DNA of 47,389 nt, from assembly GCA_001803795.1 (NCBI GenBank), contig MHEK01000082.1, forward strand, positions 1-47,389, read 5' to 3'. Of the stretch, positions 17,166 to 29,928 are shown in pieces. The position numbers were made by a program, and so were the translations under genes. This DNA comes from Nitrospirae bacterium RBG_16_64_22 (lineage in GTDB: Bacteria; Nitrospirota; RBG-16-64-22). Positions within the stretch are counted from its first letter, which is position 1. Each line of letters starts with the position of its first letter. The notes under the pieces are model-generated. The model did no database searches and was not told the origin of the DNA. It was given only the letters and a program-made list of their open reading frames with translations.

Positions 17166-18182
17166 CTACTTCTTCTTGCCTTCGAGCGCCTGGATCCTCT
17201 GTTCGAGCGCGCCCAGCTTCTTGAGCGCCGCGTTCACCTTCACGAAGTTGTAGTAGCTAACGTTCGCGACCGGAAGGTCGGGGTTCGATCCCCAGACGAT
17301 CCAGGAATCGTCGTAGTTCCGGACCTTCGTGTACCCCATGTCCCTCAGGACGGCGTACGTGAGTGTCGAGCGCGTCCCGGTCTGGCAGAGGGCGACGATA
17401 TCCTTCTTCGGGTCCAAGCCCTTGTAAAGGTCCTTGAGGCCCTTTTCGTCCTTCAGGGCCATTCCGTTGCGGTCCTTCACCTGACCCGCGCCGAGCTTCT
17501 TGGCGGCGTCCGGATCCACCCAGGCCTGCTCGTACGGGATGTTGACGCTTCCCGCAATGTGCCCGCCCCGGACCGCCCGGATGTCGTCACCGGAGAACTC
17601 CTTGGTTGTCCGGGCGTCGAGGAGCACGACGTCCTTGTTCTTCAGGTTCTTCTTTACGAAGTCGGTCGTGGCCAGGCGGTCGGCCCTAACCTTGGCAGTG
17701 AACTTCGCGGCCGGGAGCTTCTTGATGTCGGCCGAGAGCGGGTGCTTGGCGGCAACCCAGTCGTCGATCCCGCCCATGTAGACCTTGGCCTTCTCGGCCC
17801 CGAGGTATTCGAGGATCCAGAAGGGGACCGTGGCGCTCGTGTCTCCCTTGATGCTGTAGACGATGATATCGGCTTCCCGCTTGATCCCGGCGTCGCCCAG
17901 GATCTTTTCGAGCTTGGCGACGGGAAGGATCCGGGCGTCGACGTCGCGAAGGACCTTCGCGGCGCCCTTGCCGCCCAGGTTGATCGCGCCGGGGATATGC
18001 CCCTTCTTGTAGCCGTCCTCGGCACGGGCGTCCAGGAGGATCGTGCCCGCCTTGTCCTTGTTCTTGAGGACGTAGTCCGTGTTGACGATGACCGAGCCGG
18101 CATGAGCCGTCCCAACCAGTCCAACGGCCATGAGACCCACGAGCAAAGTGCCGAGCAATCCCTTTCCTTTTCGCTTGCGCAT
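17166..18182 (-). CDS. Secreted tandem-rhodanese thiosulfate/3-MP sulfurtransferase-like protein
   Basis: Signal peptide (LLVGLMAVGLVGTAHA), two rhodanese domains (LLDARAEDGYKKGHIPGAINL; LLDARTTKEFSG), active-site loop CQTGTRS, coiled-coil tail. Confidence 0.85.
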   Translation of the reverse strand: MRKRKGKGLLGTLLVGLMAVGLVGTAHAGSVIVNTDYVLKNKDKAGTILLDARAEDGYKKGHIPGAINLGGKGAAKVLRDVDARILPVAKLEKILGDAGIKREADIIVYSIKGDTSATVPFWILEYLGAEKAKVYMGGIDDWVAAKHPLSADIKKLPAAKFTAKVRADRLATTDFVKKNLKNKDVVLLDARTTKEFSGDDIRAVRGGHIAGSVNIPYEQAWVDPDAAKKLGAGQVKDRNGMALKDEKGLKDLYKGLDPKKDIVALCQTGTRSTLTYAVLRDMGYTKVRNYDDSWIVWGSNPDLPVANVSYYNFVKVNAALKKLGALEQRIQALEGKKK

Positions 18183-18407
18183 AGCGGTGCCCTCCCTTGT
18201 TATGGTTCTGTCTGTATTTCCGCCCGTCCGCCGATCCTTGTCACGGATTCGGAGGCCGGGGGCGCCCTCTCAGGAGATGGTTACGGCTTGCTGTCCAATG
18301 TCCATTTGGCTTGGAATAACTGCCATCGAGGAAGAAAATGATTTCGCGGTGTTCCCTCCGAGACTTTGTCCAGGGTGCCAACTTTTACTATGTACCGGGT
18401 CCGAAGG

Positions 18408-18429
18408 AAATGATGCATTTGCATCATTT
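18408..18429. promoter_or_regulatory. 22-bp palindromic operator candidate (AAATGATGCA-tt-TGCATCATTT)
   Basis: Perfect 10-2-10 inverted repeat in the divergent rhodanese/GT2 promoter region. A 21/22 match is present at 28963-28984. Confidence 0.6.
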
Positions 18430-18489
18430 TGCGATTGGGCTAACCAGTGAAAATCACGGGACTTTTTTGTTGGGGAATTTGCCGGTAGA

Positions 18490-19560
18490 ATGACGGTGTC
18501 GGATTGGCCGGGAAATGGACTGAAACCACGGGTCATTGAGCATGGCGGGAGCATGGCGGCGAGCTTCGTTTCTGTAGTTATCCCCAATCGAAACGGCGAG
18601 GCGACGATCGGCAAGTGCCTCGAAGCGGTCTTCGCGTCGCGATACGAGCCGTTCGAGGTGATCGTCGTGGACGACGGCTCGGAGGACGGGTCTGTCGAGA
18701 TCATCAAGCGCTTCCCGTGCAGGCTGATCCGATTGGAAAGACACTCCGGTGCGGCCAGGGCCAGGAACGTCGGCGCGCAAGAGGCGAAGGGTGATATCCT
18801 CTTCTTCACCGACGCCGACTGCCTCCTGCAAGAAGACACGCTTTCAACCGCCGCCCGGGCGTCCGCCGAGGCAGGGCCGGACACGATCGTGGGGGGGACC
18901 TACACTCGAATTCCTCACGACCGGCGGTTCTTCAGCCTGTTCCAGTCCGTCTTCATCAACTATTCCGAGACGAAGAGGCCGGAGAATCCCGACTATATCG
19001 CGACCCATGCGATGATGATCGACGCCGGGCTCTTCCGCCGGCAGGGCGGCTTCGACGAGAGATTCCTTCCGATCCTGGAGGACGTTGAGTTCAGCCACCG
19101 GCTGAGGAAGGCGGGCGTCCGGCTCGTCATGAGGCCCGAGGTTCTGGTTCAGCACATCTTCAACTTCTCCATGCTGAGGTCCCTCCGGAACGCCCTGAGA
19201 AAATCGACGTACTGGACGGCCTATTCCCTTCTCCGCAAGGACGTGTTCGCCGATTCCGGTACAGCTTCGACGGCCCTCAAGACGAACGTGGCCGCCTTTT
19301 TCCTCAGTGCCTTCATCGCGGGGGCCGCCCTCGCCACGGGAGAGGCGGGCCTCTTGTGGCTGGTGCTTGCGCCCCTCGTGGCGAATCTCGCGGCCAGCGG
19401 CGGACTGCTCCGGGCGTTCGGCCGGGCCGGAGGGTGGGTTTTCGGTCTTCTGGCGGGGGGCTACTACGCGGGCGTCTATCCCCTGGCCGTGGGTCTCGGG
19501 GCTCTTGCGGGAACGATCAAGTACCTGGGCCTCCTCGCGCGACCGGGGGAGGTCCGGTGA
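18490..19560 (+). CDS. Family 2 glycosyltransferase with C-terminal transmembrane region
   Basis: VSVVIPNRNGEATIGKCLEAV, VIVVDDGSEDGS, ARARNVGAQEAKGDILFFTDADC, then hydrophobic C-terminal helices. The start is uncertain (ATG 18490 or 18553). Confidence 0.8.
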   Translation: MTVSDWPGNGLKPRVIEHGGSMAASFVSVVIPNRNGEATIGKCLEAVFASRYEPFEVIVVDDGSEDGSVEIIKRFPCRLIRLERHSGAARARNVGAQEAKGDILFFTDADCLLQEDTLSTAARASAEAGPDTIVGGTYTRIPHDRRFFSLFQSVFINYSETKRPENPDYIATHAMMIDAGLFRRQGGFDERFLPILEDVEFSHRLRKAGVRLVMRPEVLVQHIFNFSMLRSLRNALRKSTYWTAYSLLRKDVFADSGTASTALKTNVAAFFLSAFIAGAALATGEAGLLWLVLAPLVANLAASGGLLRAFGRAGGWVFGLLAGGYYAGVYPLAVGLGALAGTIKYLGLLARPGEVR

Positions 19561-20672
19561 TGCACTCGCCGTTCCGGCACGCCGGGTCCATCTTCCGGAA
19601 GGGAAGGCCCATCCATCTCACCTTCTTCGTGACGCGGAAGTGCAACCTGACATGTCCCTTCTGCTTCTATTTGAGGAGCAAGGAAGAAGAGGCCCGAGGG
19701 GCGTCGGAGGAGTTGTCTCTGGACGAGATCCGGCGGGTCTCCGCCTCCCTGGGGAGAATGCTCTGGATCGCGTTCTCGGGAGGGGAGCCGTTCCTGAGGG
19801 ACGATCTGGCGGAGATAGGCCGGGTCTTCTACGAGCAGAACAAACCCGCGGTAATGCTGTTTCCGACCAACGGGTCTCTCCCTGAACTGATCGAGGAGAA
19901 GACCGAGAGGATCCTCAGGGAGTGCCCGAACAGCGTCGTCGTCGTGAAGCTCTCCCTGGACGGGATCGGCGAGGCGCACGACGCCCTCCGCTTGGGCCGT
20001 GACAGCTTCTCGAAGACGATGGAGACCTGTAGCCGGCTCGGGAGGCTGATCGCCCGGTATCCGAACTTCGATCTGGGGATCAACACCGTCTTTTCCGCCG
20101 CGAACGAGGACCGGATGGACGAGATCATCGAGTTCGCCCGAGGCCTTGAACACGTCAAGACGCACACGATCTCGATGGTCCGCGGAGACCTCGCCGACGA
20201 GAGCTTCCTCCGGGCGGACGTTCGGAAGTACGAGCGCGCCGCCTCCCGGCTCGCCGAGAACATGAGGCAGGGAAGGTCTCCGCACTACCGGTTTCGGGGA
20301 GGGCGATTGAAGGCCGCGCAGGACATCCTCCAGCGGCGGCTGATCCACCGGACGGCCGTGGAGAAACGGAGGGTCGTCCCTTGCTGGGCTGGGCGGCTGA
20401 ACGTCGTCCTGAGCGAGACGGGCGAGGTGTTCCCGTGCGAGATCCTGACCGAGAGCCTCGGGAACGTGAGGGACAACGGATACGACGTGAGGCGGGTCCT
20501 TCGCTCAGAGATGGCGGGGAACGCGGTCCGGGCCATCCGGGAGGGCCGGTGCCACTGCACGCACGAATGCAACTTCATCATGAACATTCTCTTCAACGCG
20601 CGCCTGTACCCGGCCCTGTTCGGGGAGTATCTCCGGCTGGGCGGCGGAGAACGGCCCGCCCTTCGTCCATAA
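19560..20672 (+). CDS. Radical SAM protein with SPASM-type C-terminal Cys cluster
   Basis: Start ATG 19560 overlaps the GT2 stop by 1 nt. CNLTCPFC (CxxxCxxC), GGEPFL, and a C-terminal CWAGR...PCE...RCHCTHEC. Confidence 0.8.
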   Translation: MHSPFRHAGSIFRKGRPIHLTFFVTRKCNLTCPFCFYLRSKEEEARGASEELSLDEIRRVSASLGRMLWIAFSGGEPFLRDDLAEIGRVFYEQNKPAVMLFPTNGSLPELIEEKTERILRECPNSVVVVKLSLDGIGEAHDALRLGRDSFSKTMETCSRLGRLIARYPNFDLGINTVFSAANEDRMDEIIEFARGLEHVKTHTISMVRGDLADESFLRADVRKYERAASRLAENMRQGRSPHYRFRGGRLKAAQDILQRRLIHRTAVEKRRVVPCWAGRLNVVLSETGEVFPCEILTESLGNVRDNGYDVRRVLRSEMAGNAVRAIREGRCHCTHECNFIMNILFNARLYPALFGEYLRLGGGERPALRP

Positions 20673-22079
20673 CCAAAGAAGGCTCTTCATTCCCTTGAGC
20701 GCCGCCCGGACGTCGTTCAGGCCGCGGAGAGCGAGGAGGCGCCTCAGGATGAACGACGGGCGGCCGTAAAAGCGCTTGAAGGCGGTCCGGCGGAGCGCGG
20801 AGATTTCATCCCGGGTCATCGTGTGGGGAACGAACGCCGCGCCCTGGTAGGTATAGTCTCTCATGTCCGCCGAGAGCGTCCCGTACTTTGCGTAGTGATC
20901 GTGGAGGTGCGTTCCAGGGAACGGAGTGAGGGCGTGAAAGTTCGCCAGGTGGGGATCAAGCTCCAGGGCGAACTCGATCGTCTTCAAGCCGTCTTTGTAC
21001 GTCTCGCCGGGGATCCCGAAGATGAACGGCGTGCTGACCTTGAGGCCGGCCTCCTTGGCGGCCCGCACGGCGCGCCGCGTCTGTTCGAGCGTGATCCCCT
21101 TCCGGAGGGCGTTCAGGTTCTTCTGGACGCCGCTCTCCGCGCCGAGGAGGATCGCCCAACATCCGGCTTCCTTGAAGGCGCGCATCAGCGGGCCGTCCAC
21201 CTGACTCACGCAGGCCGAGGCGAACCAGGTGATGTCGAGCCGCCGGGCCTTGATTTCCCTGGCGAGATCCATCGCCCTGCCGTAGTCGGCCGCCAGCGTG
21301 TCGTCGAGGAACTTGATCTCCCGGTATCCCTGGCGGACGCAAAGCTCGATCTCCTCCAGGACGTTGCCGATGCTCCGGAAACGGACGCCGCGCGCGCCGC
21401 TCTTGCGCTCCCTGTCGATCTGGAAGCAGAAGATGCACCTCTTGTCGCAGCCGCGCGAGGTGATGAGGACGGCGACCGGCTTTCTCCGGTACGTCGCGGG
21501 CGGGGGGAGGTAATGGGCGGTGTCGCCCAGGAGCTCTCGGGCGGGGAAGGGGACGGCGTCGAGGTCTTCGATCAGCGGCCGGGGAGGGTTCTTGACGATC
21601 TCCCCGCTCTTCCTGCAGACGGTTCCCGGAACGCCGTGGAGGTCTTGGCCGCGTTCGAGCCGTTCCAGGATTTCCGGGACGGTCCGCTCGCCTTCTCCCG
21701 TCACGACGGCGTCGATGCGGCCGCCGTCCTCCCCCAGGCACCGCTCCTGAACCGCGATGGGGTAGGGGCCGCCGACGCAGGTGAAGATGCTCCGGTCGAG
21801 GGCCTTGATATCCTTCGCCGTCTCGCGCGCCTTGCCCCATCCGAATGCCGTGGAATAGATTCCGGCGAAATCGGGCCGGAAGCCGGCGACGGCGTGCAGG
21901 ATCTCGGCGCGGGCCATGAACGCGCCGTTGTAGAACCGGACTTCGTGGCCGGCTGAGAGGAGGCTTGCGCCGACGTAGAGGATCCCGAGGGGCTGCCAGT
22001 AGTTGATCTGGGACCCAGCCGTGCGCGGCGAGAAGATCTCGTCAGGCGTCCATGAGGGGACGATCAGGGCGCATTTCAT
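20505..22079 (-). CDS. B12-binding-domain radical SAM enzyme
   Basis: N-terminal cobalamin-binding style (MKCALIVPSW...PLGILYVGASLLSAGHEV), then ITSRGCDKRCIFCFQ (CxxxCxxC) and a TIM-barrel core. The 3-prime end overlaps the convergent SPASM gene by 168 nt. Confidence 0.85.
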   Translation of the reverse strand: MKCALIVPSWTPDEIFSPRTAGSQINYWQPLGILYVGASLLSAGHEVRFYNGAFMARAEILHAVAGFRPDFAGIYSTAFGWGKARETAKDIKALDRSIFTCVGGPYPIAVQERCLGEDGGRIDAVVTGEGERTVPEILERLERGQDLHGVPGTVCRKSGEIVKNPPRPLIEDLDAVPFPARELLGDTAHYLPPPATYRRKPVAVLITSRGCDKRCIFCFQIDRERKSGARGVRFRSIGNVLEEIELCVRQGYREIKFLDDTLAADYGRAMDLAREIKARRLDITWFASACVSQVDGPLMRAFKEAGCWAILLGAESGVQKNLNALRKGITLEQTRRAVRAAKEAGLKVSTPFIFGIPGETYKDGLKTIEFALELDPHLANFHALTPFPGTHLHDHYAKYGTLSADMRDYTYQGAAFVPHTMTRDEISALRRTAFKRFYGRPSFILRRLLALRGLNDVRAALKGMKSLLWLWTKGGPFSAAQPEILPEQGRVQARVEENVHDEVAFVRAVAPALPDGPDRVPRHL

Positions 22080-22249
22080 CCTAAAAACCGCAGATCACTC
22101 ACCGCAGAGGACCCCGATCCGATCGGGGGAGGAATATCTTTTCGGGCGGTTTTGATGCTCACCTGCCTGGTGAGATCGATGTGTCTTCCAATCCCTGGAA
22201 CTCCTTTGCGTTCTCTGCGTGCTCCGCGGTTCAACTGCTTTTTCTAGGT

Positions 22250-23677
22250 TCATGCGTTCAATTCCGCCAGATCGGTGTCTTCCCCGTCCATCTCGAAATC
22301 GGCGGGGGTCCGCGCGATGATCCGCTGTGCAGTGTCGATGCCGGCCGCGATTACATGGTCCATGTTCTGGTACCTGAAAGCGCCGGTCCGTCCCGCGACG
22401 TGAAGGTTCTCGAAGCGGCTCAGGTAGTCGAGGATCGTCCGATAGCTGTTCTCGTACCCGACCTCGAAGACCGGGTAGGCGTGGGGGACCCTCACGACGG
22501 CGGCGTCTTCCACTTCGTCCGGCTTGACGAAGCCGAGGCGCGCCAGGTGGGAAACCGTGTTTCCGACGAGCCGTTCGTCGGTTGTCCGCCAGGCGTCGTC
22601 GCCCTGGAAGCAGAAGTGCTCCGTGACGAGAAGCGTCTTTCCCTCGGGGGCCATCTTCCCGCTCCAGTTCGTGGGCTCGTGGATCCGTCCGAAAGGGACC
22701 GACCGTTCGGGAATGTAGATCCACGTCTGGTCCGTGACGCGCGGCCGGCCGATCATGACCGCGACGATGACGAGGTCTCGGTACCTGAGCCGCGCGGCGG
22801 CGCGGGCGACCTCCTCCGGGGGCCGGGGTCGGAGCATGTCGACCAGGGACGTGAGGGGAAGGGTGGAGACGAATTCCCCCCCCGCGAAATCGCCGGTGGA
22901 GCCGGGGCCGTCCACGGCCGCCCTTTCCAGCCTGAGGCCGTCGTGGCGCAGTTCGCAGACGCGGGCGTCGGTGAGGACCCGGCCGGTCCGCTCGATCCCT
23001 TCCCGAAGGTTCTCCGCGATCCGGCCGATGCCGCGCGCCGGATAGAGGAAACGGTCCGCAAGCGTAGCCATCCCGCCGTTGGCCGAGGGGAAGAGGGCCT
23101 CCTTGATCGCCCGGCGGAGGGACAGCCCCTGGATCCGCTGGTCGATCCACTCCATGCAGATCCGCTCGCAGTCGATTCCCCAGACCTTCTCGCTGTACTC
23201 CTTGAAGTAGATGTTGAACAGCGTCCGCCCAAAGCGGTCCACGACCCAGTCCTCGAGCGAGACGATCGGCGTCTCCTTGAACCCGCGGGCGATCCGCCGT
23301 CCGGCGTAATCCAGAAGGCTCCGGATCGTGGTCGGGACCCCGAGGCCGAACAGGGCGTTGAGCGGCCTCAGCGGGTAGTCGAAGTAGCGGTTATTGAGGA
23401 GGATCTTGCTCGTTCGCGGGACCGTGACGAGTTCGGCGCCCATCAGGCCGCCCAAGAAGGCCGCGACCTTCTCGTCTTTCGTGAAGAACCTGTGTCCGCC
23501 GAGGTCGAAACGGAACCCTCCTCGGACGATCGTCCTGGCCAGGCCGCCGACTTCGGGACCCCGCTCGAGGACTTGGACGCTCCGCCCGGCCCTCGAGAGG
23601 ACGAGACCGGCGGTCAGTCCGGTCAGGCCCCCGCCGAGGATGACGATCCGATCGCTAGCGTCCTTCGGGCGGTCCAA
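22250..23677 (-). CDS. FAD-dependent oxidoreductase, UDP-galactopyranose-mutase/amine-oxidase-like
   Basis: Dinucleotide fold IVILGGGLTGLTAGLVL...VLERGPEVGGLART, then FFTKD, FNIYFKEYSEKVWG. Confidence 0.75.
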   Translation of the reverse strand: MDRPKDASDRIVILGGGLTGLTAGLVLSRAGRSVQVLERGPEVGGLARTIVRGGFRFDLGGHRFFTKDEKVAAFLGGLMGAELVTVPRTSKILLNNRYFDYPLRPLNALFGLGVPTTIRSLLDYAGRRIARGFKETPIVSLEDWVVDRFGRTLFNIYFKEYSEKVWGIDCERICMEWIDQRIQGLSLRRAIKEALFPSANGGMATLADRFLYPARGIGRIAENLREGIERTGRVLTDARVCELRHDGLRLERAAVDGPGSTGDFAGGEFVSTLPLTSLVDMLRPRPPEEVARAAARLRYRDLVIVAVMIGRPRVTDQTWIYIPERSVPFGRIHEPTNWSGKMAPEGKTLLVTEHFCFQGDDAWRTTDERLVGNTVSHLARLGFVKPDEVEDAAVVRVPHAYPVFEVGYENSYRTILDYLSRFENLHVAGRTGAFRYQNMDHVIAAGIDTAQRIIARTPADFEMDGEDTDLAELNA

Positions 23678-23714
23678 TTCCTTCTCCCAGCCGCGCCCCG
23701 CCGCCTGCGCCGCG

Positions 23715-24182
23715 CTATTTCGCCAACAGCACGGGGACCGTCGCGCGGTTGGCCACTTCCTTCGTGACGTCGCCCATGAAGAGCTTGTCGAGCGTGCTTC
23801 GCGTGTTCCCGATGATGATCACGTCCACGCCTTCTTCCCCGGCCGTCTCGATGATCGTTTCGGCCACGTGCCCGGGCTTGCTGACAGCCTTGATCCGGGT
23901 CATGCCGCTCTTTTCGAGGAAAGCCTTGTGCGAATCGAGGATCGTCTTCGAGCCGCTTTCCAGATCGTCCTCGACATTCGTTCCCTGCAAGTCCTCCTGG
24001 ACGGTCGAGAGCTCGGCGTCGCTGATCCGGTCATGGGCCAGGGTCTTCCCGCCCAATTGCCGCACGTGCAGGAGGATCACCGACTCGAACGGCGTGTCCG
24101 AGAACAATCGGGCGCACGCCGCGACGGACGCGCGGGCGCCCTTTGAATCGTCCACCGGGACAAGAATCTTCTTGACGCTCAT
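23715..24182 (-). CDS. Universal stress protein (UspA family)
   Basis: Start ATG 24182 (MSVKKILVPVDDS) with GGAGG upstream. C-terminal GVDVIIIGNTRSTLDKLFMGDVTKEVANRATVPVLL. Confidence 0.85.
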   Translation of the reverse strand: MSVKKILVPVDDSKGARASVAACARLFSDTPFESVILLHVRQLGGKTLAHDRISDAELSTVQEDLQGTNVEDDLESGSKTILDSHKAFLEKSGMTRIKAVSKPGHVAETIIETAGEEGVDVIIIGNTRSTLDKLFMGDVTKEVANRATVPVLLAK

Positions 24183-24216
24183 GGGAGGCCTCCGTTTTGT
24201 TGGATCGCGCGGGTCT

Positions 24217-24546
24217 CTATCCCCCGCCTGGCGAGACGGTGTATGAGGGGACACCCGGGGCCGCGGCGGGGGCGGAAGCCGCGGCCGGGGCCCCGTAGCC
24301 GCCCGAAGGGGCTGACGGCGCCCCGTATCCTCCGGATGGCGCCGCCGGCGCGCCGTAACCGCCTGATGGCGCTCCGTATCCCCCCGACGGGGCTCCATAA
24401 CCTCCGGAAGGAGCTCCATACCCGCCCGCGACGGCGCCTCCTCCGGCGCCTCCCTTCGCCCCCGTGTGGGATGATACGGCGTATCCGATCAGGAAGCTCA
24501 ACCATGCGACAGCAACGAGAAACACGGTCCAAAGAGTCGTTTTCAC
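24217..24546 (-). CDS. Membrane-anchored Gly/Tyr-rich repeat protein (GGYGAPS x6)
   Basis: One N-terminal TM helix, then six GGYGAP(S/A) units. The units use different synonymous codons, so the peptide rather than the DNA appears conserved. Confidence 0.6.
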   Translation of the reverse strand: MKTTLWTVFLVAVAWLSFLIGYAVSSHTGAKGGAGGGAVAGGYGAPSGGYGAPSGGYGAPSGGYGAPAAPSGGYGAPSAPSGGYGAPAAASAPAAAPGVPSYTVSPGGG

Positions 24547-24583
24547 GATCGGTCCCCTGGGTGAAAAGTTGAGAGCGGCATCC

Positions 24584-24844
24584 CTAAGCCCGTTCGGCTT
24601 TCTTGACCGTCCACTTGTATTTCCCGCCGTTCGTCGTCTTCTCCGCTATCTCGTCCCCCGTCGTGTCGCACATCGACGCGATCGACTCGCCCGAGGACGG
24701 GTTGTCGAAGATGATCTCCAGCGTGTCTCCGGTCCGCATCTTCTCCAGGGCCTTCTTCGTGTAGAGCTGGGGGTGCGGGCAGACGTATCCCGTCACGTCC
24801 AGCAGGAAAGCGCCTTCACCCTTTTTCTCGAACTTCATTGCCAT
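24584..24844 (-). CDS. TusA/SirA/YedF-family sulfur carrier
   Basis: 86 aa. LDVTGYVCPHPQL (CPxP active-site motif). Lies immediately downstream of YeeE/YedE. Confidence 0.85.
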   Translation of the reverse strand: MAMKFEKKGEGAFLLDVTGYVCPHPQLYTKKALEKMRTGDTLEIIFDNPSSGESIASMCDTTGDEIAEKTTNGGKYKWTVKKAERA

Positions 24845-24895
24845 GACTCACCCTCCCTTTTTCTGGATGTCTTTCTGTTTTGTTGGTGACTGGCT

Positions 24896-24919
24896 CTCAG
24901 CGGTCAGCCGTCAGCCGAG
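24896..24919 (+). repeat. Short GGTCAGC-type octamer array
   Basis: ctcagcggtcagccgtcagccgag lies between yeeE-like and tusA-like. It is the same unit type as 35271-35296. Confidence 0.6.
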
Positions 24920-24937
24920 ATGCCGAACACCTCCCTA

Positions 24938-26371
24938 TTATAGGTCACACGCGGCCATTTCCTTGGCCATCTTTCTATCCGTGTACCAGTTGAAGAACTT
25001 CACGCCGAGAAAAGCCCCGCCGATCATCCCGATCCCGAAGAGCCACCCCGAAACGTCGCCCTGGGAGACGCGGACGAAGAAGGCGCCGATGTTGCACCCG
25101 AGACCGAGCCGGGAGCCGATCCCCATGAGCGCCCCGCCGATCACCGCCCACATCGCGAGCTCGAGGGTGGGCGCCTTCCACTTGAACTCGTTGTGGGAAA
25201 GGGCCATGACGGCGGCGCCGAAAATCAGGGCGATCGACATCCAGTCCGCGGGGTTGATCAGCGGGTTCGGGATGCCGTTGTTGAGGCCGAAGTATATGTT
25301 GTCCATGTTGTCCGCGCCGAGCTTGTTGAACACCCACCCCACCCACTGCGCCTCCTGCGTCGTCACGTACCAGTAGCCGGGGTCGAAGACGGTGCCCTTC
25401 TCGGAGAGGCCGAACGTGATCCCCATCCTCTGCATCAGCTCGCCGAAGTTCTGGACGCCGAACTTGACCTGAAGCCCCTTCATCACGAACATGTGGAGGC
25501 CCGCCGCGATTCCCAGGATCAGTCCGGCGATCGCCGTCCGCTTGGAGGCGGCGATCATGCCCCAGTAACCGGCGAGCTCGACGCCGAGACCGGAGCTGGG
25601 CAGACCTTCCTTCTTCCGCTTGCCCAGGAAGGACTTCCGCACCCAGATGAGATAGACCCCGAGGAGGATCAACGCCGCGGGCAGGATGATGCCCACGAGA
25701 ACGTTCCCCACGTAGGCCGCGAGGAACGGGTTCTTGAACTTCACGATTTCGGCGTACGACGTGGTCGGGAGGTTCCACACGTGGCCGGCCAGGAACTGGT
25801 CCACCCACCCGTCGCCCGCGTTGATCGAGGCGGGGAGCCCCTTGGCGACGGCCGAGTCGTGCCAGGACTGCGGGGCCAGCTTGTTGGCCCAGCCGCCGAT
25901 GTCCGCGAAGATCGCCTGCGTCACGCTGATCGAAAGGATCACGAGGAAGGCCACGCCGTTCCCCTCTCCGGCCTTGTAGAGCGAGCCGGAGGCGCACCCT
26001 CCAGTCAGGACCATCCCGACGCCGAAGATGAGCCCGGCGATGACGGCGTGAACGCCGTAGGGCGCGGAGTGGAACGTGCTCATCCCGACGGCCGTGACGA
26101 AGGCTGAGACGAGGCCGAAGAGGGCCATCGCGATCATGATCCCGACGGCCATCCGGGGGACGCCGACGGCGAAGAGGTCCCGGAACGCCGAGGAGAAGCA
26201 GAACCGACCGTACTGGAGGCTCATGCCGTAGATGAAGCCGAACCACAAGTAAGCCGTGAGGTAGATGTAGTACTCGTTCATCGCGTACGTGACGATGCTG
26301 ACGACGGACAGGAACACCACGATGGCTAGAATCCAGAGCTGATTTTTCCGGTTTGTTTCATCCATTGCCAT
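24938..26371 (-). CDS. YeeE/YedE-family (thio)sulfate/selenium-type transporter, 477 aa long form
   Basis: Polytopic membrane protein with the conserved Cys loops (QYGRFCFSSAF, LTGGCASGSLYKAGEGN, LGLGCNIGAFF). Confidence 0.85.
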   Translation of the reverse strand: MAMDETNRKNQLWILAIVVFLSVVSIVTYAMNEYYIYLTAYLWFGFIYGMSLQYGRFCFSSAFRDLFAVGVPRMAVGIMIAMALFGLVSAFVTAVGMSTFHSAPYGVHAVIAGLIFGVGMVLTGGCASGSLYKAGEGNGVAFLVILSISVTQAIFADIGGWANKLAPQSWHDSAVAKGLPASINAGDGWVDQFLAGHVWNLPTTSYAEIVKFKNPFLAAYVGNVLVGIILPAALILLGVYLIWVRKSFLGKRKKEGLPSSGLGVELAGYWGMIAASKRTAIAGLILGIAAGLHMFVMKGLQVKFGVQNFGELMQRMGITFGLSEKGTVFDPGYWYVTTQEAQWVGWVFNKLGADNMDNIYFGLNNGIPNPLINPADWMSIALIFGAAVMALSHNEFKWKAPTLELAMWAVIGGALMGIGSRLGLGCNIGAFFVRVSQGDVSGWLFGIGMIGGAFLGVKFFNWYTDRKMAKEMAACDL

Positions 26372-28094
26372 CCCCCCCCAAGTGTGCCGTTTTCTGTGTC
26401 GGTGAGTATATCCTGATGAGACTTCTGTAGGCGAACACTTCGTCCGATACGGCGAATTCCCCGGCCAGGCGATACCCTTCGATTCGACGGCGGATCGAGG
26501 CGAGCGATGCCTCGTCGAAATTTGACGCGATGACCGCCAGCGCGGGCCGGCCTCCGGGAGAATCGGGCCGCCCGGCGTAATAGCGCGGGTTCTCGTATTC
26601 CCAGGTGAACCTCAGCGGGGACGTGGAGGCGTCTCCCGGCGAGGCGGAAGGCTCACCCGGGCGATAGACGATGTTCTTCTCGGTAAAGAGATCGAGGAGC
26701 GGAACGGAGACGGCCGGATTGATGGAGACGCGCGCTTGGGGAAGCGTGATGACTTCGACTCCGTCCGCGTCCATCGCGTCGAGGTGCCTGCCGGCGTCCC
26801 GCAGGTTGGCGGCGCTCATGTTTTGGAGGAACGGGAGGTAGCCGAAGAGGGCGATGACGATCGAAACAGCCGCGATTGACGCGACGGCGAACCTCTTTGC
26901 CGCCGTGTCCTTGATCCGGCTGAGCCCGTAAGAGGCCATGAGCGCGAGCATCGGGAGGACGGGGATGATGTATCTTGCCCGCCTGATCCCCAAGGCGACC
27001 ACCAGGAGGACGGGCCAGGCGGCGATCGCGAACTTCAGGTCCTTCCTTAGGACCGCCGCGGCTGCGCCGGCCAGCGCGGACAGCGTGATGAAGGGGTGAA
27101 TCTGAAAGAAGAACGTGGACGCGAAGCTTTCCGTCCATCGGCCCAGGCCGGGCGCTTGAAAGGTCCGCAGGAGCCCGATCTGTTCCGAGACGATGTCGAA
27201 CTTGAACGCCGCGAGGCCGCCGACGATGAAGAGCGAGACGGCCAGGATGGACAACCCCCTCCGGAGGACGGTCTTCGGCCCGTTCGGCCCCTTCGAAACC
27301 CGCGCCAGGACGATGACGGGGAGGACGGTAAGCATCAGCCAGGCCGAGTACTTGGACAAGACGGCCAGGGCGACGGCTGTGCCCGACAAGACCAGGGGGC
27401 CCGTTCCGCCACGGCCGAGGGTCTTGACGACCGAGAAGACGGCGAGCGTCAGGAAGAACATGGTCGGGACGTCCGCGAGCATCAGCGGTACTTGCGTGAG
27501 AAGGTAGGGCATCCCGAGAAGGAGCGCGCCGGCGAAGAGCCCGGTCGTCCTGTCCCAAAGTTCTCTTCCGATTAGATACGTGAGAAAAACCGTGCCCGAG
27601 AAAAGGAGCGTCGTGAACACCTGGATATAGATCCTCGTCTCGCCGAAAAGGCTGAAGATCAGGCCGTAGAGAAGGGGGACCAGGGGCAGGTCGGTCCAGG
27701 CCTTGATCTCCGCGCCCCATTCCGCGAGGAAATAGCCGATGCCGTAGACCTCCAGATGCTTGGCCTGGGTGAAGTAACGCGCGGCGTCGGCGATCGCCTC
27801 GGGCTCGCTCCAGAAGAGCGCCCCCGCCGCGAACGATCCCAGGAAAAGGGCGGCGGGAAGGAAGCGGCCGGGAATCGGGAGTCTCGTGAAAACGTATGCG
27901 GCGGCAAGTCCGATGCCGAGGAGGGGGAGCACCTTGAATACGGCTATGCCGGCGAACACCCATTGCCAGCTCGTCAGCCTGTTATCGTCCAGCGCGCGAA
28001 GAACGAAAAGGGTCAGAAAGACGGCGAGCGAAAGAAGGGAAACTAGAACGAGGAGATGGTTGTTGTCTTCAGTCTTCGGCCTAATCACGCTCAC
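26358..28094 (-). CDS. GT-C fold membrane glycosyltransferase (ArnT/PMT-like)
   Basis: 578 aa, about 11 TM helices plus a C-terminal soluble domain. The layout and loop motifs (DAARYF..., DLPLVPLLYG) resemble 4-amino-arabinose/dolichyl-phosphate-mannose transferases. Overlaps the yeeE-like start by 14 nt. Confidence 0.65.
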   Translation of the reverse strand: MSVIRPKTEDNNHLLVLVSLLSLAVFLTLFVLRALDDNRLTSWQWVFAGIAVFKVLPLLGIGLAAAYVFTRLPIPGRFLPAALFLGSFAAGALFWSEPEAIADAARYFTQAKHLEVYGIGYFLAEWGAEIKAWTDLPLVPLLYGLIFSLFGETRIYIQVFTTLLFSGTVFLTYLIGRELWDRTTGLFAGALLLGMPYLLTQVPLMLADVPTMFFLTLAVFSVVKTLGRGGTGPLVLSGTAVALAVLSKYSAWLMLTVLPVIVLARVSKGPNGPKTVLRRGLSILAVSLFIVGGLAAFKFDIVSEQIGLLRTFQAPGLGRWTESFASTFFFQIHPFITLSALAGAAAAVLRKDLKFAIAAWPVLLVVALGIRRARYIIPVLPMLALMASYGLSRIKDTAAKRFAVASIAAVSIVIALFGYLPFLQNMSAANLRDAGRHLDAMDADGVEVITLPQARVSINPAVSVPLLDLFTEKNIVYRPGEPSASPGDASTSPLRFTWEYENPRYYAGRPDSPGGRPALAVIASNFDEASLASIRRRIEGYRLAGEFAVSDEVFAYRSLIRIYSPTQKTAHLGGDGNG

Positions 28095-28159
28095 GCTTCA
28101 TCCTCATGCCGTCGGGCTCATGCCGTCGGGCGGCCTCTCTTCGTGCCTGCGCTGGCACT

Positions 28160-28330
28160 TCACCAAGTCGTGACCTTGTCGTGCGAGAAGATCTCGTCCA
28201 CCAGGTCTTCGTAGGAAACGCTCTTCTTGGAAAGGTCAATGACCTTCACCTGATGGCTCTTGGACTGCACGCTGATGATCCGGTCCGCCGGCTTCCCTGC
28301 CGCTGAAACCAGGATGTGGAGAATCTTCAT
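28160..28330 (-). CDS. Unlisted 56-aa ORF, miniature DsrH/TusB-like
   Basis: My own translation: MKILHILVSAAGKPADRIISVQSKSHQVKVIDLSKKSVSYEDLVDEIFSHDKVTTW. The N-terminus (ILH) and C-terminus (Y..LVD.....DKV..W) resemble the ends of DsrH/TusB. It falls below the size cutoff of the track. The track ORF 28106-28306(+) is antisense to it. Confidence 0.45.
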   Translation of the reverse strand: MKILHILVSAAGKPADRIISVQSKSHQVKVIDLSKKSVSYEDLVDEIFSHDKVTTW

Positions 28331-28368
28331 CGGTCATCCTCCGCGATCGGCCCGCCCGAATTCGGCCC

Positions 28369-28671
28369 TCACAAAATGACGATACGATCCGCTTCCTTGT
28401 TCATCACGGCGTTGTTGAACTGACTGCCGCACTTGATCGTCTCAGGAATCGCTTCGATGTTGACGTGGTACTCCAGGGCGCTGTAATCGCACACGCTCAT
28501 CGAGACGCCCGGAAGCTTGCTCAGCCCGGTGTACGAAGGGTCCTCGACGAGGCGCGTCCCTTCGTCCATCGCGAAGAGAATCACCTCGTGCCCCTTGGAC
28601 ACGGCGGCATTCGTGAGTCCCACGACGTCCTGGAGATGCTTGTCGGTGTTGACGAGGATCCCGAGTTTCAT
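28369..28671 (-). CDS. DsrE/DsrF-like small sulfur-relay family protein
   Basis: 100 aa. MKLGILVNT...GHEVILFAMDEG...KCGSQF...ADRIVIL matches the DsrE/F-like Rossmann layout. AAGGAG lies 7 nt upstream. Confidence 0.6.
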   Translation of the reverse strand: MKLGILVNTDKHLQDVVGLTNAAVSKGHEVILFAMDEGTRLVEDPSYTGLSKLPGVSMSVCDYSALEYHVNIEAIPETIKCGSQFNNAVMNKEADRIVIL

Positions 28672-28962
28672 GAAGTTGCTCCTTATTTGCGCATGTGTCC
28701 AGCACGCACGGTCCGCTGGACAGGTCCATGGCCTCAGCCTTGGGGGATAGGCGCCCTTGTGGAACCGACAGACCTGGCCCCTTGAGCCCTGGCCTGTCGC
28801 TCAAGGCAGAACAGGCGGATCCGCTTCTCGATCGGGGGGGATCTTCAGGGATCTGAATCTTGCCGCCGGCGCCGCCTGGATGTCGGCGCACAAGGGTCGT
28901 GCCCCCGGAACCGGCAAACGCAGTTTAGCCCTCGAACTATTACAGAGGACGGCCAAGGAAGA

Positions 28963-28984
28963 AAATAATGCAAATGCATCATTT
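28963..28984. promoter_or_regulatory. Second copy of the 22-bp palindromic operator (AAATAATGCA-aa-TGCATCATTT)
   Basis: 21/22 identical to the reverse strand of the site at 18408-18429. It heads a 325-nt non-coding gap upstream of the dsrE/F-like gene. Confidence 0.55.
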
Positions 28985-28995
28985 TACCCGACGTC

Positions 28996-29268
28996 CTAAT
29001 AAGGCAGAACGTGGTCGTATTCGGCCAGTTTCTCCGCGATCTCGTCCGTGGAAAGGTACTTCATTTCGGCGTTTTCCCGGGCATTCGTGTAGACGTTCAT
29101 GTCCATTTCCTTCATCGTTTCGAAGTTAAGAAGGTTCTTCTCCGTCTCCTCCATCTTCCTGCCCAGCACGAAGACGTCGACCGCGTCGTCCAGCAGGATC
29201 AGACCGACCGACATCCTCAGAGCTTCTCCCTGCCTGTCCGTGACGAGAACCGCTATTTTCTTTGCCAT
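28996..29268 (-). CDS. Small DsrE/F/H-superfamily-like protein
   Basis: 90 aa. MAKKIAVLVTDRQGEALRMSVGLILLDDAVDVFVLG matches the DsrEFH-type beta-alpha start. Lies 9 nt downstream of the LuxR-type regulator. Confidence 0.5.
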   Translation of the reverse strand: MAKKIAVLVTDRQGEALRMSVGLILLDDAVDVFVLGRKMEETEKNLLNFETMKEMDMNVYTNARENAEMKYLSTDEIAEKLAEYDHVLPY

Positions 29269-29277
29269 TTTTCCTCC

Positions 29278-29928
29278 TTAGAGAAGATTGTGCCGGTAGG
29301 CATAGGCCACCGCTTCCATCTGGCTGTGGACGCCGAGCTTGGTGAGGAGGTGCTGGATGTGGTTTCGGACCGTGACGGGGCTGATGCAGAGGCGCTGGGA
29401 CAGCGCCGGCACGGAGAGGCCTTCCGCCAGCAAGTGAAGGATTTCGTGCTCCCGCGCGGTCAGGCAGGAACTGACCGTCGACGGGGACGTCCGGCCGTTG
29501 GTCTTTCTGCGCGAGGGGCCCCGCCGGGGCGCGAAGGACCGTCCCAGGGATTCGAGAGCGTCCGCGGCTTCTCCGCGGTGCAGAAGATGGACGACCGTCC
29601 AGAGATCTTTCCGCTGGGACGGAACGAGGATGATGCTGACCGAGAGGCTCAGGTCCTTTCCCCAGGCATCGCGGACCCGGAGCGAGAACGTCTCCGGGGC
29701 GCTCCCTCCCCGGGAAAGGTGAGCGACGTTGCAGTCCGTCTTGCAGAACGATTGACCCGCGGGCGTACAGGTTTTGAAGACGTCGCCGCACGGACGCTCG
29801 AGTGCGTCCTTGGAGGGGATCCCCATCAACTGCTCGCAAGCCGGGTTCCAAAAAACGATCCGGCTCGTGGAGTCGACGGCGAACACGCCGTCGACGGCTC
29901 GGAAGAAAAGGTCCGCGAGTGTCGGCAT
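29278..29928 (-). CDS. PAS-domain / LuxR(GerE)-type HTH transcriptional regulator with a Cys cluster
   Basis: N-terminal PAS-like (VFAVDSTSRIVFWNPACEQLMG) carrying C-x6-C-x7-C-x3-C (CGDVFKTCTPAGQSFCKTDC). C-terminal LTAREHEILHLLAEGLS...ISPVTVRNHIQHLLTKLG. Confidence 0.8.
   Translation of the reverse strand: MPTLADLFFRAVDGVFAVDSTSRIVFWNPACEQLMGIPSKDALERPCGDVFKTCTPAGQSFCKTDCNVAHLSRGGSAPETFSLRVRDAWGKDLSLSVSIILVPSQRKDLWTVVHLLHRGEAADALESLGRSFAPRRGPSRRKTNGRTSPSTVSSCLTAREHEILHLLAEGLSVPALSQRLCISPVTVRNHIQHLLTKLGVHSQMEAVAYAYRHNLL

Follow-up and report, generated by a model that had tools for sequence, protein, structure and literature searches.

A YTD-type sulfur relay module conserved together with a mutase-like flavoprotein, two radical SAM enzymes and two glycosyltransferases in Nitrospirota and other phyla

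Why should genes for the import and relay of sulfur lie among genes for two radical S-adenosylmethionine (radical SAM) enzymes, two glycosyltransferases and a flavoprotein that resembles a sugar mutase? The question is raised by contig MHEK01000082.1 of Nitrospirae bacterium RBG_16_64_22, a metagenome-assembled genome (MAG) from groundwater; the whole contig of 47,389 bp was the window analysed here, and its gene content was called with Pfam and NCBIfam profile scans of the window open reading frames (ORFs). The minus strand carried, in this order, a PAS-LuxR regulator, proteins of 90, 100 and 56 aa, a GT-C glycosyltransferase, YeeE, TusA, a small protein with GGYGAP repeats (the G-Y-G protein), a universal stress protein (USP), the flavoprotein and a B12-binding-domain radical SAM enzyme (the B12 radical SAM). 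A family 2 glycosyltransferase (GT2) and a second, SPASM-type radical SAM enzyme converged on this array from the plus strand, and a rhodanese was divergent from the GT2. The original prediction, made from the sequence alone, had read these genes as an undescribed system; the content, order and positions of the 14 genes agreed with it in the Pfam and NCBIfam scans. Judged by gene composition, the sulfur half is the already known YTD, or yeeE-tusA-dsrEFH type II, module. What appears to be new is its conserved, co-regulated fusion with a mutase, two radical SAM enzymes, two glycosyltransferases and the G-Y-G protein.

The B12 radical SAM, which the original prediction had suggested as a query for neighbourhood conservation, had 2355 homologs at E ≤ 1e-20. 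The top 120 were 66–93% identical to it and came from different phyla, and the family was ~70% identical across phyla. A scan of one genome per species found relatives in 389 genomes; the best 80 loci, nearly all from MAGs, were fetched, and linkage was counted by tblastn of the 14 window proteins against them. Only loci with at least 7.5 kb of upstream flank (n = 42), at least 4 kb of downstream flank (n = 51) or, for the rhodanese, at least 6 kb downstream (n = 44) were considered. This revealed YeeE in every locus counted (42/42), upstream of the B12 radical SAM and in the same orientation, across phyla and even where protein identity fell to ~50%. The flavoprotein (37/42), TusA (35/42), the DsrE-like 100-aa protein (34/42) and GT-C (32/42) were also found upstream on the same strand, as was the 56-aa gene, directly after the DsrE-like gene, in 28/42; USP had the same position as in the window in 24/42. 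The SPASM radical SAM and the GT2 were convergent with and downstream of the B12 radical SAM in 31 and 29 of the 51 loci respectively, and a rhodanese homolog was present anywhere in the locus in 20/44. Reverse look-ups from homologs of the DsrE-like or the 90-aa protein led to the extended cluster again in both cases with enough flank (2/2), and a third contig showed the first genes only. The co-clustering is therefore a conserved, co-regulated unit and the chance adjacency that had been named as a possible refutation was not upheld.

The loci spanned Nitrospirota (including Thermodesulfovibrionia and Nitrospira), Rokubacteria, Alpha-, Beta- and Gammaproteobacteria (the last represented by Acidiferrobacterales), Deferribacteres and Actinomycetota, and the full gene order recurred in Nitrospirota, Rokubacteria and all three proteobacterial classes. 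A Nitrospirae genome from the Juan de Fuca Ridge, in which the B12 radical SAM is 68% identical, had a matching gene order: DsrE-like protein, 56-aa protein, 559-aa membrane protein, YeeE, TusA, a 130-aa GGYG protein, USP, flavoprotein and B12 radical SAM, with a convergent radical SAM and GT2. Minimal variants consisted of YeeE, TusA (or a TusA-like protein), the G-Y-G protein, optionally USP, the flavoprotein and the B12 radical SAM. This gene set is the invariant core, to which the DsrEFH-like trio, GT-C, SPASM radical SAM, GT2, rhodanese and LuxR are often added. When the other ORFs of the 80 loci were clustered all against all, the further partners found were lineage-specific only, namely a second rhodanese, a histidine kinase with a sigma-54 regulator, heptosyltransferase-like genes, a short YeeE and, in three loci, DsrC. 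The second rhodanese was secreted and single-domain, and replaced or supplemented the tandem-domain one in 6 other loci. The DsrC/TusE-like genes encoded proteins ending PKPTGCV and lay within 10 kb of the cluster (L008, 20,316 bp–20,831 bp; L027, 21,067 bp–21,417 bp; L085, 5768 bp–6112 bp). A further variant, found in L088 (12,185 bp–13,303 bp) and in L089, had an Old-Yellow-Enzyme-type FMN oxidoreductase after GT-C and no UGM-like flavoprotein (see below) beside the B12 radical SAM; its three small DsrEFH-like genes were contiguous and lay behind a rhodanese.

Both operons carried the same 22-nt palindrome, for which 100 shuffles gave an expectation of 0 copies. The original prediction had assigned the two copies to the two outer promoter regions. 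Both copies were real, and copy 1 lay in the rhodanese/GT2 region; copy 2 was found not ahead of PAS-LuxR but 11 nt past the stop codon of the 90-aa gene, which leaves ~290 nt from it to the start of the DsrE-like gene. No third operator was found upstream of PAS-LuxR in the window; a weaker third copy was present there in three other loci (L022, L023 and L067). The palindrome, of the form AATGATGCA-NN-TGCATCATT, occupied the two equivalent intergenic positions (90-aa gene/DsrE gene and GT2/rhodanese) in loci of Nitrospirota and of Alpha-, Beta- and Gammaproteobacteria. The exact motif ATGATGCANNTGCATCAT, with 16 specified bases, occurred 18 times in the 1.3 Mb of fetched loci against ~6e-4 expected, and all of these copies fell within those two intergenic regions; the loci concerned either had the LuxR gene or were cut short on its side. 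Counted by locus, the palindrome was at the equivalent positions in 12/12 loci with a PAS-LuxR match and in 5 loci cut short on the LuxR side, and it was absent from Thermodesulfovibrionia-type loci with ample flank and no LuxR. It is probably the phylogenetic footprint of an operator common to both operons, most simply that of PAS-LuxR. As the second copy sits between the 90-aa and 100-aa genes, the minus-strand array probably comprises two transcription units, one of LuxR and the 90-aa gene and the other running from the 100-aa gene through the B12 radical SAM.

The PAS domain of the regulator retained Cys47, Cys62 and Cys66 in 12/13 homologs and Cys31 in 10/13. Such a four-Cys arrangement resembles that of PAS sensors that bind Fe-S clusters, NreB among them, and the regulator may accordingly respond to redox state or sulfur. 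In eight LuxR-less loci the flanking genes encoded a HAMP-PAS histidine kinase and a sigma-54-dependent response regulator, which suggests that control of this gene set has passed to another regulator there. The stretch between operator copy 2 and the DsrE-like start codon (28,672 bp–28,962 bp) forms an unusually long leader of ~290 nt; the corresponding spacers of other lineages were much shorter. A search of this stretch for a riboswitch or structured leader gave no credible Rfam match (a single hit of 14 bits against a gathering score of 88.5), and its folding energy was not unusual (z = −1.17). Scans of both operator regions for sigma-70 promoters and terminators found nothing.

The 'YTD gene cluster' (Umezawa et al. 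2020, as presented in PMC9751629) has been proposed as a marker of sulfur disproportionation and was up-regulated during thiosulfate disproportionation (PMC9751629, PMC12998232). It has since been re-identified as yeeE-tusA-dsrEFH type II, with in vitro sulfur transfer from TusA through DsrEFH II to DsrC for cable-bacterial homologs (PMC13293266, ISME J 2026), and dsrEFH type II is proposed to serve dissimilatory sulfur metabolism (PMC9751629, PMC13293266, PMC12998232). It was reported from 985 genomes, and its 'subtype 1' is 57% Nitrospirota, 21% Pseudomonadota and 8% Actinomycetota (PMC13293266); these three phyla were all among the fetched loci, so the taxa match as well as the genes. The present cluster shares with that module YeeE/YedE, TusA, a DsrE-like protein of ~100 aa in which a single Cys is conserved, and two short conserved hypothetical proteins that are candidates for DsrF/H-like folds. 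It differs in that the module is split and interleaved with GT-C, the G-Y-G protein, USP, the UGM-like flavoprotein and the B12 radical SAM, and faces a convergent operon of GT2 and SPASM radical SAM and a secreted rhodanese, with the LuxR operator common to both. In Desulfobacterota, according to the literature, the YTD cluster stands alone, without radical SAM or glycosyltransferase genes. Part of the claim of an undescribed system thus fell away, as the sulfur half has been published. The other part stood: none of the radical SAM, glycosyltransferase and flavoprotein genes reached a curated NCBIfam family of known function, and full-text literature searches turned up no publication in which YeeE/YedE-TusA-DsrE is connected to radical SAM and glycosyltransferase genes. 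The three YTD papers (PMC9751629, PMC13293266, PMC12998232) did not mention radical SAM or glycosyltransferase genes, and a look for this genome in the supplementary files of PMC13293266 gave no match.

The cysteines expected of a sulfur relay were conserved throughout. YeeE Cys58, Cys126 and Cys426 were invariant (41/41), TusA retained Cys22 of its CPxP motif in 46/46, the 100-aa protein retained Cys61 in 38/38, and the rhodanese retained its active-site Cys266 (CQTGTRS) in 23/23 homologs. An N-terminal Sec-type signal with a single hydrophobic segment (residues 8–26) bore out the secreted nature of the rhodanese. The original prediction had described the three small proteins alike as DsrE/F/H-like, and here the three fared differently. 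The 100-aa protein has a firmly predicted DsrE fold: its AlphaFold2 model had a pLDDT of 96.8, and the best PDB folds in Foldseek were 2qs7 (DsrE/DsrF-like, E = 6e-7), 2hy5_A (Allochromatium vinosum DsrE, E = 3e-6, TMq 0.86) and YchN. Many of its orthologs carry PF02635 or are named 'DsrE family protein'. For the 90-aa protein a DsrE/F-like fold was predicted with moderate confidence (pLDDT 93.7; the best two PDB folds were DsrE/DsrF-like 2pd2, E = 9e-3, and DsrE 2hy5_A, E = 1.5e-2). Its family has at least 3091 representatives, all annotated as hypothetical. The 56-aa protein might weakly be called DsrH-like, as its C-terminus alone matched the TusB/DsrH model (E = 0.037) and had a conserved V-I/V-S-W ending. 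Profile searches of the 100-aa and 90-aa alignments against PDB sequences gave non-significant DsrE matches (0.098, 0.42) or none, and a profile-profile comparison of these two families was not significant. In the window dsrEFH is not contiguous with tusA: the operator parts the 90-aa gene from dsrE, and dsrE/H is followed by GT-C and yeeE before tusA is reached. The three small genes were contiguous with tusA in L031 and L088. The 90-aa gene was found in various positions: adjoining LuxR, in one run with the other small genes, or behind the GT2.

In Escherichia coli, TusA-TusBCD is a DsrEFH-like relay that feeds a biosynthetic enzyme. The likeness extends to the order of events: in a complex of three subunits, the Cys of the DsrE-like one takes over the persulfide from TusA, and the biosynthetic enzyme is supplied next. 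The present cluster differs from that system (TusA-TusBCD-TusE-MnmA) in having no TusE or MnmA, in its far smaller subunits, and in its presumed clients, the radical SAM enzymes and the flavoprotein. A tRNA 2-thiouridylase, MnmA, the classical client of the E. coli relay, is encoded ~14 kb from the cluster (43,529 bp–44,806 bp) and is unlinked in other genomes. Eleven loci of the Nitrospira type carried a divergent TusA-like protein of 74–79 aa between a short yeeE and the flavoprotein gene. This protein matched the TusA model at E = 7e-5 without the CPxP Cys, and ended in Cys-Cys-(V/A/I/T), or in C-x-C in three loci; the C-terminal Cys-Cys recalls the C-terminal arm of DsrC.

The flavoprotein matched a UDP-galactopyranose mutase (UGM, Glf) of the eukaryote type, 4dsg, over its full length (E = 5e-23). 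Its GGH loop, R181, R331, Y401, R430, Y436 and N438 were invariant in 61/61 family members; these correspond to the flavin loop, the two diphosphate-binding Arg, the Tyr and the Asn of UGM. At the positions that contact uridine in UGM, F is replaced by L, Q by K/R and N by S, so a different nucleotide or a different sugar may be used. The bacterial UGM equivalog TIGR00031 was not reached (64.9 bits against a cut-off of 303.75), and the only NCBIfam model passed was NF005548 (434 bits), which is annotated 'hypothetical protein'. An exact-sequence look-up of the window flavoprotein returned no record. In related loci it is translationally coupled to the B12 radical SAM, which is a further difference from UGM. 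From its sequence the flavoprotein is very likely a nucleotide-sugar pyranose/furanose mutase, possibly for another nucleotide sugar.

The B12 radical SAM has the class B domain layout (an N-terminal B12-binding domain and a radical SAM core). Besides the CX3CX2C motif, C290 and C307 were invariant. Its nearest solved structure was AprD4 (6fd2, E = 6e-28), a sugar diol-dehydratase, which reportedly does not bind cobalamin. The nearest curated family was the sugar ring-contracting HpnJ, at one third of the required score (184 against 577.6); since BchE likewise fell short (145 against 481), the protein belongs to neither family. The protein was 524 aa here compared with ~480 aa in most relatives, and the extra tail of ~45 aa (giving 524–536 aa) was seen in the closest relatives only; it may have a function or may merely reflect a lost stop codon. 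In the SPASM-type enzyme the CX3CX2C motif, C276, C294, C332 and C334 were kept in 35/35 homologs and C338 in 34/35, and its C-terminal domain could be a twitch or a partial SPASM domain. No N-terminal RRE was found, the Cys motif beginning at about residue 29. The nearest PDB sequences were viperin, GDGT-MAS, SkfB and BlsE, all weak matches, and the score against MftC was 58.3 (cut-off 265).

For the GT2 the best NCBIfam matches were MftF (104, cut-off 280) and an arsenosugar glycosyltransferase (95, cut-off 182), with HpnI at 16.4 (cut-off 310). It had at least three C-terminal hydrophobic segments between residues 266 and 350 and also matched the lipid-acceptor GT21 model. GT-C had at least nine hydrophobic segments, and D36-D37-N38, directly after the first transmembrane segment, was conserved in ≥93% of 31 homologs; it had no match among PDB sequences. 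A membrane GT2 paired with a GT-C of the PMT_2/ArnT superfamily that has acidic residues in its first periplasmic loop resembles the ArnC/ArnT, GtrB/GtrC and Ppm1/Pmt pairs. It differs from them in that no flippase is encoded, the GT2 is nearer the MftF/EpsD types than ArnC (24 bits), and the pair is missing from minimal variants.

The hopanoid side-chain pathway (HpnH/HpnI/HpnJ/HpnK) had been named as the kind of known route that would account for this set. It shares a GT2 and a sugar-ring-remodelling B12-domain radical SAM with the cluster, and HpnJ was the best-scoring curated family. The HpnJ and HpnI equivalog cut-offs were far from reached, and no HpnH, HpnK or shc gene was linked. A squalene/phytoene synthase gene does lie nearby and is not conserved elsewhere, and we rejected this pathway. 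Mycofactocin biosynthesis (MftA-F) likewise combines a small Tyr-containing protein, a SPASM-type radical SAM and an MftF-like GT2 in one neighbourhood; the present cluster has no RRE (MftB), peptidase (MftE) or MftD, its scores are below the cut-offs, and its small protein is membrane-anchored and exported. Thiosugar systems were compared by description. AbmM, of the albomycin and 4'-thiothymidine clusters, places sulfur in a furanose ring in a radical SAM-dependent manner (PMC12691670). With BexX-type synthesis it provides precedents for radical SAM transfer of sulfur into a furanose and for thiosugars that depend on a sulfur carrier; these systems use no YeeE/TusA/DsrE relay and no GT-C.

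The G-Y-G protein lay between tusA and the flavoprotein gene in nearly all loci. It consisted of an N-terminal helix (MKxxLWxxIxxV...FLIGYS) followed by 1–13 G-Y-G units, in which tyrosine was the only invariant functional side chain; many homologs ended in GGYG-K/H/R or GGY. In Nitrospira-type loci the transmembrane-anchored form was replaced by a lipoprotein with an LVSC lipobox and (A/S/G)GYG(D/E)KAKEAV repeats or a GGY ending. The transmembrane anchor or lipoprotein signal places the repeat tail outside the cytoplasm. The lipoprotein form was paired with the short YeeE and the divergent TusA-like protein. Its 11-residue repeats (L031, 6220 bp–6660 bp; L077, 9428 bp–9802 bp) weakly matched apolipoprotein, perilipin and HSP12 models, at 29 bits and below the cut-off. 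A search for sequence features of sulfur-globule proteins was unproductive.

Taken together, the two operons probably make up one regulon in which the import and relay of sulfur is tied to sugar tailoring and envelope glycosylation, with relay sulfur as a candidate co-substrate of the tailoring enzymes. Our leading reading, which we put forward tentatively, is that the relay sulfur may feed radical SAM tailoring of a furanose-derived envelope glycoconjugate. Periplasmic sulfane sulfur or thiosulfate would be mobilised by the secreted rhodanese and, as is known of the YeeE family and in keeping with the three invariant channel cysteines, would be imported through YeeE. TusA Cys22 would then take up the sulfur as a persulfide and, by analogy with the cable-bacterial homologs, pass it on to Cys61 of the 100-aa protein, which would form a complex of the DsrEFH type II kind with the 90- and 56-aa proteins. 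The UGM-like flavoprotein, given its invariant catalytic residues, would convert a nucleotide-pyranose to the furanose. The B12-domain and SPASM/twitch radical SAM enzymes would remodel the furanose sugar, and one of them might, more speculatively, insert the relay sulfur; remodelling of a sugar is assumed since their nearest relatives (AprD4, HpnJ, viperin and BlsE) act on sugars or nucleotide sugars. From what is known of their families, the membrane GT2 would put the product on a lipid carrier and GT-C would transfer it at the periplasmic face. The acceptor would most likely be the co-encoded, anchored G-Y-G protein, via its tyrosines. Both operons would be switched jointly by the PAS(4-Cys)-LuxR protein through binding to the 10-2-10 palindrome upstream of each.

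Entry of sulfur into the sugar was ranked first because the dependence is one-way, because TusA-TusBCD offers a precedent and because the cluster is present in Nitrospira MAGs. The B12 radical SAM was never without YeeE (42/42), whereas YTD alone is described in Desulfobacterota. To our knowledge the genus Nitrospira lacks dsrAB and the Dsr pathway, and the presence of the cluster in two Nitrospira MAGs (L020 and L044) argues for a sulfur sink other than Dsr.

Several points weigh against this reading. The entry of sulfur into any product is a proposal made from sequence, and we know of no B12-domain radical SAM that acts as a sulfur inserter. The SPASM model scored 19.0 against a cut-off of 21.5, and the cluster encodes no flippase. 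The G-Y-G protein is part of the core, yet has no necessary role in a pure thio-sugar pathway. GT2, GT-C and SPASM radical SAM genes were not found within 10 kb of the minimal variants, and the lipid-linked transfer branch is therefore not universal. As the 80 loci are the most similar of 389, the linkage figures may not hold for distant relatives. Additionally, the published role of YTD/DsrEFH type II is dissimilatory, the module feeding DsrC and being up-regulated in thiosulfate disproportionation (PMC13293266, PMC12998232, PMC9751629).

That literature, which places the relay in energy metabolism, is the starting point of the closest rival. Here the relay works as published, and the flavoprotein, radical SAM and glycosyltransferase genes make a sulfur-free sugar that is carried by the G-Y-G protein or another envelope acceptor, an arrangement that we consider possible but somewhat unlikely. 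The glycan, the G-Y-G protein and the periplasmic rhodanese would form a periplasmic matrix for the binding or solubilisation of hydrophobic S0 or polysulfide, which it would make available to YeeE in the manner of the envelope proteins of sulfur globules, and we give this function the same guarded standing. The known proteins of sulfur globules are exported and have a high content of Gly and Tyr. This rival better accounts for an exported protein in the core, since the G-Y-G protein is both core and extracytoplasmic, its Nitrospira-type forms being lipoproteins. It is also in keeping with the recurrence of two kinds of secreted rhodanese in the cluster, and with the DsrC-like genes at ≤10 kb in three loci. 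The resemblance of the lipoprotein repeats to the amphipathic repeats of apolipoprotein, perilipin and HSP12 points the same way, but is compositional only. Against it, the strict tie of a two-radical SAM sugar pathway to YeeE (42/42) is left unexplained, the cluster is found as well in Nitrospira MAGs, for which sulfur respiration is not known, and minimal variants have no glycosyltransferase nearby. The two ideas may also be combined: the relay and the pair of UGM-like flavoenzyme and radical SAM would make a sulfur-containing, furanose-derived sugar, which GT2 and GT-C would attach to tyrosines of the periplasmic G-Y-G protein as an extracytoplasmic handle for the capture and import of zero-valent sulfur. 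We regard this combination as distinctly unlikely.

The core position of the G-Y-G protein, with Tyr as the sole invariant functional residue of its repeats and with its frequent GGYG-K/H/R or GGY endings, could instead mark it as a multi-core precursor. Its Tyr would be modified by the SPASM and B12 radical SAM enzymes and glycosylated by the MftF-like GT2 to yield a Tyr-derived cofactor or ribosomally synthesised and post-translationally modified peptide akin to mycofactocin or PQQ. The best NCBIfam match of the GT2 (MftF) and the weak match to MftC would agree with this, but both are far below the cut-offs (104 against 280, 58 against 265). Neither radical SAM has an RRE or PqqD domain, and the profile scans and conserved neighbours revealed no separate PqqD, peptidase or MftD-like gene. 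The anchor or lipoprotein signal also puts the repeat tail outside the cytoplasm, away from the cytoplasmic radical SAM enzymes, and the minimal variants examined keep the G-Y-G protein and B12 radical SAM with no SPASM radical SAM or GT2 homolog within 10 kb. A peptide-derived product is thus very unlikely. It is more improbable still that the relay and the radical SAM/glycosyltransferase genes are functionally separate modules joined by shared horizontal transfer or operon hitch-hiking. The existence of YTD without these genes in Desulfobacterota and the varying accessory content of lineages would suit such an origin, but the genes are interleaved: the GT-C gene, which overlaps yeeE by 14 nt, separates yeeE from dsrEH, and the G-Y-G and USP genes are placed between tusA and the flavoprotein gene. 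The 42/42 linkage at identities down to ~50% across phyla and the single operator sequence before both operons across phyla also speak against it. Least probable of all is delivery of selenium by a YedE/YedF-type transporter and carrier for a seleno-sugar or seleno-glycoconjugate, which the original prediction had allowed for and for which no evidence was obtained. The best NCBIfam match of the transporter was indeed the Se-associated YedE/FdhT model, and TusA also matched YedF, but both scores were far below the cut-offs (148 against 350 and 40.7 against 79). No selD, senB or other Se gene was seen among the conserved neighbours, although no search aimed at Se-pathway genes was made, and the DsrE-like and rhodanese partners and the published biochemistry are those of sulfur.

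The coordinates of the cluster are given in Table 1. The GT2 stop codon and the SPASM radical SAM start codon overlap by 1 nt (TGATG between 19,558 bp and 19,562 bp), as had been proposed, and the GT-C and yeeE genes overlap by 14 nt. Most junctions had almost no spacing, in line with the original description, apart from gaps of 324 nt between the 90-aa and DsrE-like genes and 170 nt between the flavoprotein and B12 radical SAM genes. The 3′-ends of the convergent radical SAM ORFs overlap by 168 nt (20,505 bp–20,672 bp); no such overlap was seen in distant loci such as L004. The true start of the GT2 is likely to be at 18,553 bp (335 aa), which matches the gene call in relatives.

Table 1. Coordinates of the genes and putative operators of the cluster in the 47,389-bp window
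Feature	Position (bp)	Strand	Evidence or remark
Rhodanese, secreted, tandem-domain, 338 aa	17166-18182	-	Pfam Rhodanese 116.7 bits, 2 stretches; divergent from GT2
Putative operator copy 1, AAATGATGCA-TT-TGCATCATTT	18408-18429	.	Rhodanese/GT2 divergent intergenic region
GT2 glycosyltransferase, membrane-anchored	18490-19560	+	Glycos_transf_2 112 bits; Glyco_transf_21 25.8 bits
Radical SAM with C-terminal SPASM/twitch-type Cys-rich domain, 370 aa	19560-20672	+	Radical_SAM 50 bits
B12-binding-domain radical SAM, 524 aa	20505-22079	-	PF02310 58.3 bits; PF04055 81.2 bits
UGM-like (amine-oxidase/GLF-type) flavoprotein, 475 aa	22250-23677	-	Match to UGM 4dsg
USP, 155 aa	23715-24182	-	Usp 68 bits
GGYGAP x6 repeat (G-Y-G) protein, membrane-anchored, 109 aa	24217-24546	-	Transmembrane segment, residues 7-25, and six units
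TusA sulfur carrier, 86 aa	24584-24844	-	TusA 67.9 bits
YeeE/YedE-family sulfur transporter, long form, 477 aa	24938-26371	-	Sulf_transp 131.9 bits
GT-C (PMT_2/ArnT-like), 578 aa	26358-28094	-	PMT_2 48.5 bits (cut-off 26.1); PMT 33 bits, above cut-off
56-aa protein, candidate DsrH (type II) subunit	28160-28330	-	C-terminus against TusB/DsrH model, E = 0.037
100-aa predicted DsrE (type II-like) sulfurtransferase subunit	28369-28671	-	AlphaFold2 and Foldseek
Putative operator copy 2, same palindrome, 1 mismatch on minus strand	28963-28984	.	Between 90-aa gene and DsrE-like gene
90-aa protein, candidate DsrF (type II) subunit	28996-29268	-	AlphaFold2 and fold search
PAS-LuxR (GerE) transcription factor, Cys-rich PAS domain	29278-29928	-	GerE 57.9 bits; PAS_9 30.4 bits

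The genes that flank the cluster were unrelated housekeeping genes (a GHMP kinase, the squalene/phytoene synthase, a DUF4258/DUF2283 pair, compatible-solute and glucan genes, MscS channels and MnmA), and their adjacency to the cluster was not conserved in other phyla. Just past the GHMP kinase beside PAS-LuxR, the region between 31,367 bp and 33,677 bp encodes the squalene/phytoene synthase (248 bits) and a Thi4/amine-oxidase-like flavoprotein; the synthase gene (31,367 bp–32,209 bp) also adjoined the cluster in the closest relatives (L001), and did not in other phyla. Directly downstream of the rhodanese gene, a small overlapping pair that resembles a toxin-antitoxin system (16,544 bp–17,049 bp) encodes a DUF4258-like protein, matched weakly and below the Pfam cut-off, and a DUF2283 protein. 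This pair is adjoined by the gene of a 492-aa beta-propeller protein (14,895 bp–16,373 bp) with a match of 49.7 bits to the cytochrome d1 heme domain. Both the pair and the beta-propeller gene were conserved in the closest relatives only. Between 1422 bp and 14,364 bp lies a block of glucan and compatible-solute genes that encode a 1703-aa MalQ-amylase fusion, a 952-aa amylase/CBM48 protein, a DUF5752 protein, two MscS-type channels and a 777-aa GT2 with a mannosylglycerate-synthase-like domain.

The role of YTD/DsrEFH II is debated, the module being seen either as a marker of sulfur disproportionation or as a route of reverse-Dsr sulfur oxidation, and the fusion described here bears on both its sulfur source and its sulfur sink. 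In the Nitrospirota/Proteobacteria form the module appears under what is probably one conserved operator, together with a near-invariant B12 radical SAM, a likely sugar mutase, the G-Y-G protein and usually GT2 and GT-C, which supplies new, concrete components for deletion, expression and labelling. The carriers are abundant groundwater and subsurface lineages, almost all of them uncultured. If sulfur enters the sugar, the cluster would represent a new relay-fed radical SAM thiosugar pathway, and if the Tyr-linked reading were true, a new class of sulfur-bearing, Tyr-linked glycoprotein. If sulfur does not enter the sugar, the glycan and the G-Y-G proteins would be candidates for the missing periplasmic machinery of S0/polysulfide uptake. 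Under either reading, the regulator and its putative operator offer a handle for finding the inducing signal.

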